DNA of 64,000 nucleotides from a virus (lineage: Duplodnaviria > Heunggongvirae > Uroviricota > Caudoviricetes). Shown here one piece after another: positions 16,315 through 17,024 of this stretch. Within the stretch, counting starts at the first letter, position 1; each line of letters opens with the position of its first letter. Location: the IMG/VR virus record IMGVR_UViG_2718218305_000006; one strand, 5' to 3'. The position numbers were made by a program, and so were the translations under genes. The notes under the pieces were generated by a model, which worked only from the letters and a program-made list of their open reading frames with translations, was not told the DNA's origin and searched no databases.

Positions 16315-16641
16315 GTGTTGCAATGTCCGGGGGATATTTGTTAAGTAGATTGTATTGTATGTAAAGGCAGAGCTCCGAATTTTACTGTTGTAAGTGGGCC
16401 TGGCGGGAATGGTATCGCCAGCATCATTGGCTTGGGTCCAGTAAAAAGAGACGCAGAAAGATGCACAATAGGCACTACGCGTCATGCATGGATTAGGTCG
16501 CTCATTATTTACACAGTACTGCTAAAAAATTATTAAGGAAAGCGCGGCACTTCGTATGTAAGAGCGTGTCGCGGTTGGCTGGTGAACTTTCGATAGTGCG
16601 AGTATTGAATGATTTCCAGCCGTTACCGATTTACGTGTTTA

Positions 16642-16884
16642 TTAGCGAACAAACCACTCGTCAGCAGACTCCCAGGTATCTTTCAGCGTCTCCTGAACAA
16701 AAGTTTTTGCAGAATCTTTATCGGCGGTGCGAGTAACTGAAAGGCCATCGTTGCTGGTGGATTTGATGATCACTTCTACATCGTCATAACGTTTACTGAC
16801 ACGTCGCAGCATTTCTTGTTGCAGGGCAGGAACAGAACCTTTTGGCATTTTGTTGATTTTGGCTGCGGGGTATCTGTGGGGCAT
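16642..16884 (-). CDS. dinI: DinI-family protein (phage-encoded DNA-damage-inducible protein I homologue)
   Basis: 80 aa from ATG at 16884; C-terminus ..[19 protein letters not shown] resembles E. coli DinI (..ILQETWESADDWFV..); track ORF extends further 5' through AT-rich sequence. Confidence 0.65.
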
Positions 16885-16999
16885 ATATGGGACATAAAAA
16901 GGCCTCAAATAAACAGCAAAATCGAGATTAGGGATTTTTAGAAAAAATACAACCATCTGAAAAAACTTAGAAAACACCCAAAAACCCACAGAATAGTAA

Positions 17000-17024
17000 A
17001 AAACATCTATGAATTATGGATTTC
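17000..17024. other. att junction (attR of prophage A / attL of prophage B); shared sequence with 62701-62725 ends here
   Basis: Sequence ..AAAACATCTATGAATTATGGATTTC identical at both sites, then diverges (17025 A vs 62726 C); includes ATGGATTTC = ydfJ start codon context. Confidence 0.55.

Follow-up and report, generated by a model that had tools for sequence, protein, structure and literature searches.

The repeat and the features at its borders

The window analysed here is the whole 64,000-nt stretch of virus record IMGVR_UViG_2718218305_000006. It holds a direct repeat of about half a kilobase, located at 16539-17024 and 62239-62725, whose copies are very probably the right ends of two head-to-tail lambda-like prophages at one attachment (att) site inside the host gene ydfJ. 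The prophages are termed A and B. The window starts inside prophage A, whose late region (head, tail and tail fibre; 1-16538, plus strand) is collinear, at 97.3% identity, with the genes from capsid to tail fibre in the middle prophage of strain Z885. Repeat copy 1 follows. Without the att core (16539-17013), it is the right end of prophage A and is composed of a DinI-like gene and an attP-type P arm, neither of which the empty ydfJ site has. Prophage B (17025-62714; 45.7 kb), the equivalent of Sp11 in strain Sakai, begins with its P' arm (17025-17061 and onward) and a C-terminal integrase fragment, and ends in copy 2, of which 62239-62714 holds B's DinI-like gene and P arm. A 3' remnant of host ydfJ (62717-64000, plus strand) completes the window.

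The two copies are 97.7% identical over 487 aligned positions, with a single 1-nt indel, and MAFFT, a repeat finder and blastn agree on this. A first-pass annotation of the sequence had described about 480 bp occurring twice, which is borne out; its left coordinates were 4-5 nt short and its right ones exact. The DinI-like gene that it placed in each copy is also present. Prophage A encodes an 80-amino-acid protein at 16642-16884 on the minus strand (PF06183, E 1.2e-17, full profile coverage), and prophage B an 80-amino-acid protein at 62343-62585 on the minus strand (PF06183). Likewise, a fragment of the prophage B integrase does follow copy 1, at 17062-17613 on the minus strand. This tyrosine integrase fragment (PF00589) is 183 amino acids long and starts 37 bp from the core, the place where Z885 and the free phage Tritos have a full-length 431-amino-acid homologue.

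Identity is uneven along the repeat, being 93% in its first ~100 nt and 100% in the final ~390 nt. On the right, the two copies part abruptly after ...ATGAATTATGGATTTC, where copy 1 goes on with AAGAGTCAT and copy 2 with CAGTTATAT. The 11-nt end motif TTATGGATTTC by itself is present at just these two places in the window (0.00 occurrences expected), and a chance origin of the repeat is therefore excluded.

The left edge is of another kind. By blastn, the late regions of A and B share ~13 kb of collinear homology (91-97%; 3343-16343 and 47291-60135), and the repeat is its final block. The preceding blocks pair 3343-5192 with 47291-49140 (91%), 5405-15501 with 49362-59455 (96.5%), and 15636-16343 with 59428-60135 (95%). 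Only differing cargo, inserted 3' of the tail-fibre genes, separates the repeat from this homology, so its left edge is the edge of a variable cargo slot and not an att boundary. The tail-fibre-to-repeat interval is 2.1 kb in B, with three nleG genes, and 195 nt of unique sequence in A. That the final 390 nt are fully identical while nearby sequence is at 93-97% suggests either that the copies have undergone gene conversion or that the phages came to share one att module recently.

The att core and the empty ydfJ site

The attB site was predicted by joining the left flank from K-12 (attL of the Qin prophage) to the right flank of the window (attR), which gave 329 nt. Of 5426 complete E. coli genomes, the collection used throughout, 2009 have this sequence unbroken and at 100% identity, annotated as rspB and ydfJ. 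In strain M217 the uninterrupted ydfJ gene is 1368 nt long, encodes 455 amino acids, and begins MTIEKHERSTKDLVKAAVSGWLGTALEFMDFQLYSL.

The first-pass annotation had proposed aligning 16300-17060 with 62190-62760 as the way to define the core, and a comparison with an uninterrupted ydfJ locus. In a five-way alignment of attB, K-12 attL, the window attR, the A-B junction and a free-phage attP, TTATGGATTTC is the sole common stretch, at 11 bp. It lies at 17014-17024 at the A-B junction, in the order P(A)-O-P'(B), and at 62715-62725 at attR, in the order P(B)-O-B'. The proposal of two prophages on one att core, with the right end of A fused to the left end of B, stands; the shared site is 11 bp and not ~480 bp. 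Host DNA in the repeat amounts to these 11 bp, and the remaining ~476 of 487 bp are phage DNA, namely dinI and the P arm of attP. The length of the repeat thus reflects a dinI-attP module common to both phages, and not the duplication of a long host segment.

Another reading takes the ~480-bp repeat for a segmental duplication of the host region upstream of ydfJ, and the repeat does include the first 9 nt of the ydfJ open reading frame as annotated in K-12. However, in the 2009 genomes rspB is followed directly by a 455-codon ydfJ, with neither dinI nor a P arm between them, and only 11 bp are shared with the repeat. In Tritos, moreover, the P arm is contiguous with the integrase gene. The empty-site comparison had been named beforehand as a possible refutation of the att reading; it favours that reading, just 11 bp being host-derived, and refutes a duplication of host DNA, which is left with almost no probability.

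The prophages are inserted at codons 27-31 of ydfJ. The ATG at 62717, which falls within the core and the final 9 nt of the repeat, encodes Met29, an internal residue of the native 455-amino-acid YdfJ. The true ydfJ start is 84 nt upstream of Met29, on the far side of the prophage array. The earlier claim that host ydfJ follows copy 2, with this ATG inside the repeat, is correct, and only the reading of the ATG as the ydfJ start fails. The ydfJ that adjoins the array is a remnant without the 28 N-terminal residues. It comprises codons 29-455 and the stop codon, a 427-codon open reading frame with Pfam matches to the MFS family. The Sakai RefSeq record marks the array-adjoining ydfJ as a pseudogene. 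For annotation, this fixes the core at 11 bp and makes the ydfJ beside the array an N-terminally truncated gene whose start is not supplied by the phage. The last base of the window (64000) is the end of the ydfJ stop codon.

The Qin prophage of K-12 occupies the same core in ydfJ. Its P and P' arms are ~88% identical to those in the window, it has DicF and dicB, and it is flanked by the same 427-codon ydfJ remnant on one side and by the 5' fragment, annotated ynfP, on the other. Unlike the array, Qin is a single, heavily decayed 20-kb prophage, with the dinI open reading frame deleted from its P-arm region and no effector genes (PMC2608844).

Layout of the A-B junction

Across 17014-17024, the junction is arranged as P arm, core, P' arm and int. 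The free phage Tritos has the same contiguous P-O-P'-int order in the middle of its genome, followed by xis and exoVIII. The window junction reproduces this module, at ~88% identity; Tritos differs by one core mismatch (ATGCATTTC) and by having no dinI gene in the module. Two further phages, HannyBb, whose match profile is like that of Tritos, and mEp460_ev081, align across the same junction region at 88.5% each, as judged from the alignments and not from their records.

The att arms contain a paired motif, TGGGRCA-N4-TGGGRCA. It occurs three times in the window, every time in an att arm, against 0.00 occurrences expected. The first pair is in the P arm of A (16877-16894, plus strand; TGGGGCA-N4-TGGGACA) and overlaps the dinI start codon. 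The second is in the P' arm of B (17084-17101; TGGGGCA-N4-TGGGGCA), and the third is in the P arm of B (62578-62595). The motif is ~137 bp before the core in both P arms and 60 bp after it in the P' arm, and it is also kept in Qin and Tritos. Because of this position and conservation, and by analogy with lambda, the pairs are candidate arm-type integrase binding sites.

The arrangement resembles the lambda att site in its short identical core between phage arms and in the int gene that abuts the P' arm. The window pairs stand at about -137 and +60, where lambda has its arm-type sites. It differs from lambda in its core and target, and the window site falls within a coding gene, which the phage leaves interrupted.

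Identity with the published Sp11-Sp12 region

The tandem of Sp11 and Sp12 at ydfJ has been described for O157:H7 ever since the Sakai genome. A 200-nt segment with the window junction at its centre is 100% identical to positions 2203988-2204187 of Sakai (NC_002695.2), where the RefSeq annotation reads 'prophage Sp12', 'prophage Sp11', 'integrase pseudogene' and 'DNA damage-inducible protein'. The same 200 nt are equally identical in EDL933, TW14359, EC4115 and others. A contiguous junction is found in 277 of the complete genomes, mostly of O157:H7; an O26 strain matches at 93.7%. Two lambda-like prophages in tandem at ydfJ, undergoing deletions and segment replacement, have been described (PMC9997748), and Sp11-Sp12 and Qin have been placed at the same locus (PMC2608844). 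The tandem arrangement is thus already known for O157:H7 (PMC9997748, PMC2608844, PMC2669165). The sole aspect that is mildly new is a non-canonical distal partner that may be competent for integration.

The window shares with Sakai the host site, the 11-bp core and the junction itself, which apart from an IS629 in Sakai is 99.97% identical over 2.9 kb. It also shares the ydfJ-proximal Sp11 with nleG2-3, nleG6-2 and nleG5-2, dinI, a truncated int and no xis (PMC9997748, PMC2669165). In contrast, the distal prophage of the window lacks nleG7, IS256::ISEc8 and IS629 before dinI, and its head genes are of the ClpP-like protease/capsid fusion type. The Sakai insertion sequence (IS1203/IS629; NC_002695.2, 2204371-2205680) lies in the junction-proximal dinI region, at the equivalent of window position ~16740, and is absent from the window.

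These matches bear on whether the array is an artefact of assembly. Long near-identical repeats are a classic cause of mis-joins, and either the 487-bp repeat or the ~13-kb homology could have produced one, or one prophage could have been falsely duplicated. The exact combination of A and B has no fully identical counterpart among the complete genomes; the best, Z885, covers 100% only with a 1417-bp indel that contains nleC. Against an artefact, 277 genomes finished independently, among them Sakai, EDL933 and TW14359, have the junction unbroken and at 100% identity, and an A-like prophage abuts Sp11 likewise in Z885 and Z887. The early regions of the two prophages differ throughout, which argues against a collapsed or duplicated single copy. 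A faulty assembly is therefore very improbable.

In canonical O157:H7, as seen in TW14359 (NC_013008.1, ~2160133-2160425), the array has lost its outer left end. The integrase pseudogene of Sp12 there lacks its C-terminus and abuts an 87-nt gene fragment beside ynfA. The position of this fragment and its MKIVKAEVFV... start suggest the 5' end of rspA, in which case a deletion has taken most of rspA along with rspB, the 5' fragment of ydfJ and attL.

Prophage B

The ydfJ-proximal prophage of Sakai is Sp11, annotated by RefSeq at 2158311-2204088. Sakai matches the window at 99.97% over 16741-19624 and at 99.5% over 59462-64000, the two ends of Sp11, and prophage B is therefore Sp11 of E. coli O157:H7. 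Z885 is 99.95% identical over 16349-47711.

The recombination genes of B have been damaged by a deletion. The integrase fragment, annotated in Sakai as pseudogene ECs_2217, is adjoined by an N-terminal RecE/ExoVIII fragment (17595-18839, minus strand; PF06630). By blastn against the middle prophage of Z885, whose int-xis-exo module is intact, 17025-17607 matches the 3'-terminal 583 nt of the module at 99.5%, and the alignment resumes 2250 bp further on, within the exonuclease gene. A 9-bp overlap of the two aligned segments, at 17599-17607, marks the deletion joint, and the missing part is 15995-18243 of the compared stretch. The deletion took integrase residues 1 to ~248, the entire xis gene and the 3' part of recE. 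The lost integrase part contains the arm-binding domain, the core-binding domain and the TGIRPGE arginine. As a result, B is predicted to be unable to integrate or excise by itself, in agreement with PMC2669165. In Sakai, Int is disrupted in both Sp11 and Sp12, Xis is absent from Sp11, and circularisation of neither prophage was seen (PMC2669165).

Between its tail-fibre genes and the repeat, B carries three NleG type III effector genes (60178-62181, plus strand; PF06416, E 1e-43 to 1e-47), which are nleG2-3, nleG6-2 and nleG5-2 in Sakai.

Prophage A

Among the complete genomes, no match of at least 99% to the A late region was found. The best matches are prophages adjoining prfC, in OkiPb01700 and NE122, at 98.4% over 1-16540. 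This homology extends to ~16860 in the 5' end of dinI (96.7% over 15501-16860) and ends where the ydfJ-type P arm begins. A is therefore a mosaic, with an att module swapped within the 5' end of dinI.

In canonical O157 genomes, Sp12 has HK97-type head genes, and nleG7 and IS256::ISEc8 precede dinI; A has other head genes and is without the nleG7/IS segment. These genomes align to junction-spanning queries from dinI onward only, or over 80% in several pieces (75-80% overall). A is not the canonical Sp12.

A prophage like A, 97-98% identical, abuts Sp11 in Z885 and Z887 as it does in the window. In Z885 this middle prophage lies between Sp12 and Sp11 and has an intact 431-amino-acid integrase and an excisionase; ahead of it stand a dinI-core junction and another prophage. 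Z885 is the only documented case of a triple array. There (NZ_CP062763.1, 2249840-2346350), three prophages stand in a row, and each pair is joined by the same dinI-core junction. The leftmost Z885 prophage starts with a different integrase, beside ompW and not at ydfJ, implying that prophages have mediated an inversion or a recombination event.

At the position equivalent to ~16350, Z885 has a 1417-bp segment with the type III secretion system effector gene nleC, which is absent from the window. The slot between the tail-fibre genes and dinI is a variable effector cargo slot, filled by nleC in Z885, by three nleG genes in B, and by nleG7 and IS elements in canonical Sp12. The A tail-fibre open reading frame at 14685-16004 (plus strand) has a long collagen-like Gly-X-Y run.

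As in Z885, prophage A may have joined the array later, having the same att specificity. If its Int and Xis are functional, A could act in trans on Sp11, which carries the NleG genes and has neither a full int nor xis, and excise or mobilise it by way of the identical P arms and the near-identical P' arm. Alternatively, A and B could be excised together as one circle, and a prophage regarded as fixed would be re-activated. The late arrival and the mobilisation in trans, taken jointly, are a doubtful proposition. A differing distal member of the array bears on strain typing, on the effector repertoire (nleC, nleG) and on prophage-mediated rearrangements in Shiga-toxin-producing E. coli.

Origin of the tandem array

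The attP of these phages is composed of the P arm, TTATGGATTTC and the P' arm, followed by int. A tyrosine integrase would recombine the attP core with the identical 11 bp in ydfJ, and two phages of the same specificity would give the order ... P(A)-O-P'(B) ... P(B)-O-B', with the left end outside the window. Each repeat copy consists of a DinI-like gene, a P arm of ~130-150 bp and the 11-bp crossover core. Copy 1 ends in a reconstituted attP-like hybrid site followed by the B integrase gene, and copy 2 in attR followed by truncated ydfJ.

Secondary integration of lambda into the hybrid att site of a resident prophage leads to internal P-O-P' junctions. We infer that the second phage entered the ydfJ locus in the same manner, through Int-mediated recombination with the hybrid att site of the resident. 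This route is favoured because the junction has the canonical gene order (tail fibre, cargo, dinI, attP and int) and because there is an experimental precedent: the sister prophage Sp10 integrated beside Rac, with the Rac attR serving as attB (PMC2669165).

The same structure could also have another origin, a RecA-dependent crossover in the ~13 kb of late-region and dinI homology, in which case the internal P-O-P' junction would simply be the attP of the incoming phage. The substrate for such a crossover is present, as 91-97% collinear homology over ~13 kb and the 487-bp block. A second prophage at yehV in strain EC4115 has been described as arriving by this route (PMC9997748), and A is itself a mosaic in which a prfC-type late region and dinI are joined to a ydfJ-type P arm. 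However, the canonical gene order of the junction fits Int entry equally well, Int-mediated entry at an occupied site is experimentally shown for Sp10 at the Rac attR (PMC2669165), and the two routes yield an identical P-O-P' product that this window cannot separate. Entry by RecA is unlikely, and Int-mediated integration is the preferred reading.

Four points count against the picture of two Int-integrated prophages at one site. The left end of A (attL, int and xis) is beyond the window, so neither the full array nor the integration competence of A is visible. A is not the canonical Sp12 partner, which makes the window a variant of the published array. Identity between the P arms is 100%, against 93% in the adjacent ~100 nt and 91-97% in the late regions, which points to homogenisation or to a recently shared module and leaves Int and RecA entry inseparable. 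Finally, the binding and activity ascribed to the integrase are predictions.

The tandem is expected to be unstable. Direct repeats of ~13 kb and 0.5 kb lie ~44-46 kb apart, and one crossover between them would delete one prophage unit and leave a chimera. Chimera formation by a single crossover is the instability reported for the Sp11-Sp12 region. Spontaneous deletions and recombination within Sp11-Sp12 are reported by Chen et al. 2013, as that study is cited in PMC9997748 and PMC8743559. The first-pass annotation had expected a tandem at one site to be prone to recombination and chimeras, and the report of Chen et al. 2013, to the extent cited in PMC9997748, agrees with it.

DinI-like genes and other features

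The DinI-like protein is annotated in TW14359 and Z885 as WP_001120551.1, 'DinI-like family protein'. DinI proteins are modulators of RecA under SOS regulation. An SOS (LexA) box, CTGT-N8-ACAG with at most 1 mismatch, was searched for in 16885-17100 and 62586-62760, and none was found upstream of either dinI. The dinI homologue of the prfC-site prophage has two SOS-box-like palindromes upstream, in the compared stretch of OkiPb01700 (2727-2960). The copies in the window may be unregulated or non-functional. The N-terminus of the ydfJ-type DinI-like proteins is divergent, and the prfC-type homologue starts MRIEICIAKE.

A promoter and terminator scan of 16000-17700 gave counts that were not above those of shuffled sequence, with nothing usable for dinI. 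An Rfam scan of the whole window at gathering thresholds gave no match inside either repeat copy. The conserved ~100 nt to the left of dinI had been considered as an RNA gene, and this reading was rejected since the stretch is free of Rfam matches.

Elsewhere in B, Rfam matches are found to the small RNA DicF (19480-19531, minus strand), the sok antitoxin RNA (26741-26915, plus strand) and the small RNA STnc100 (32231-32403, plus strand). Two tRNA genes are at 31209-31281 and 31385-31458, both on the plus strand (Rfam). The 104-amino-acid open reading frame at 37897-38211 (plus strand) is the counterpart of a Z885 gene annotated as 'PerC family transcriptional regulator'. It is probably the PchB regulator, which has been placed in the Sp11-Sp12 region (PMC2608844).

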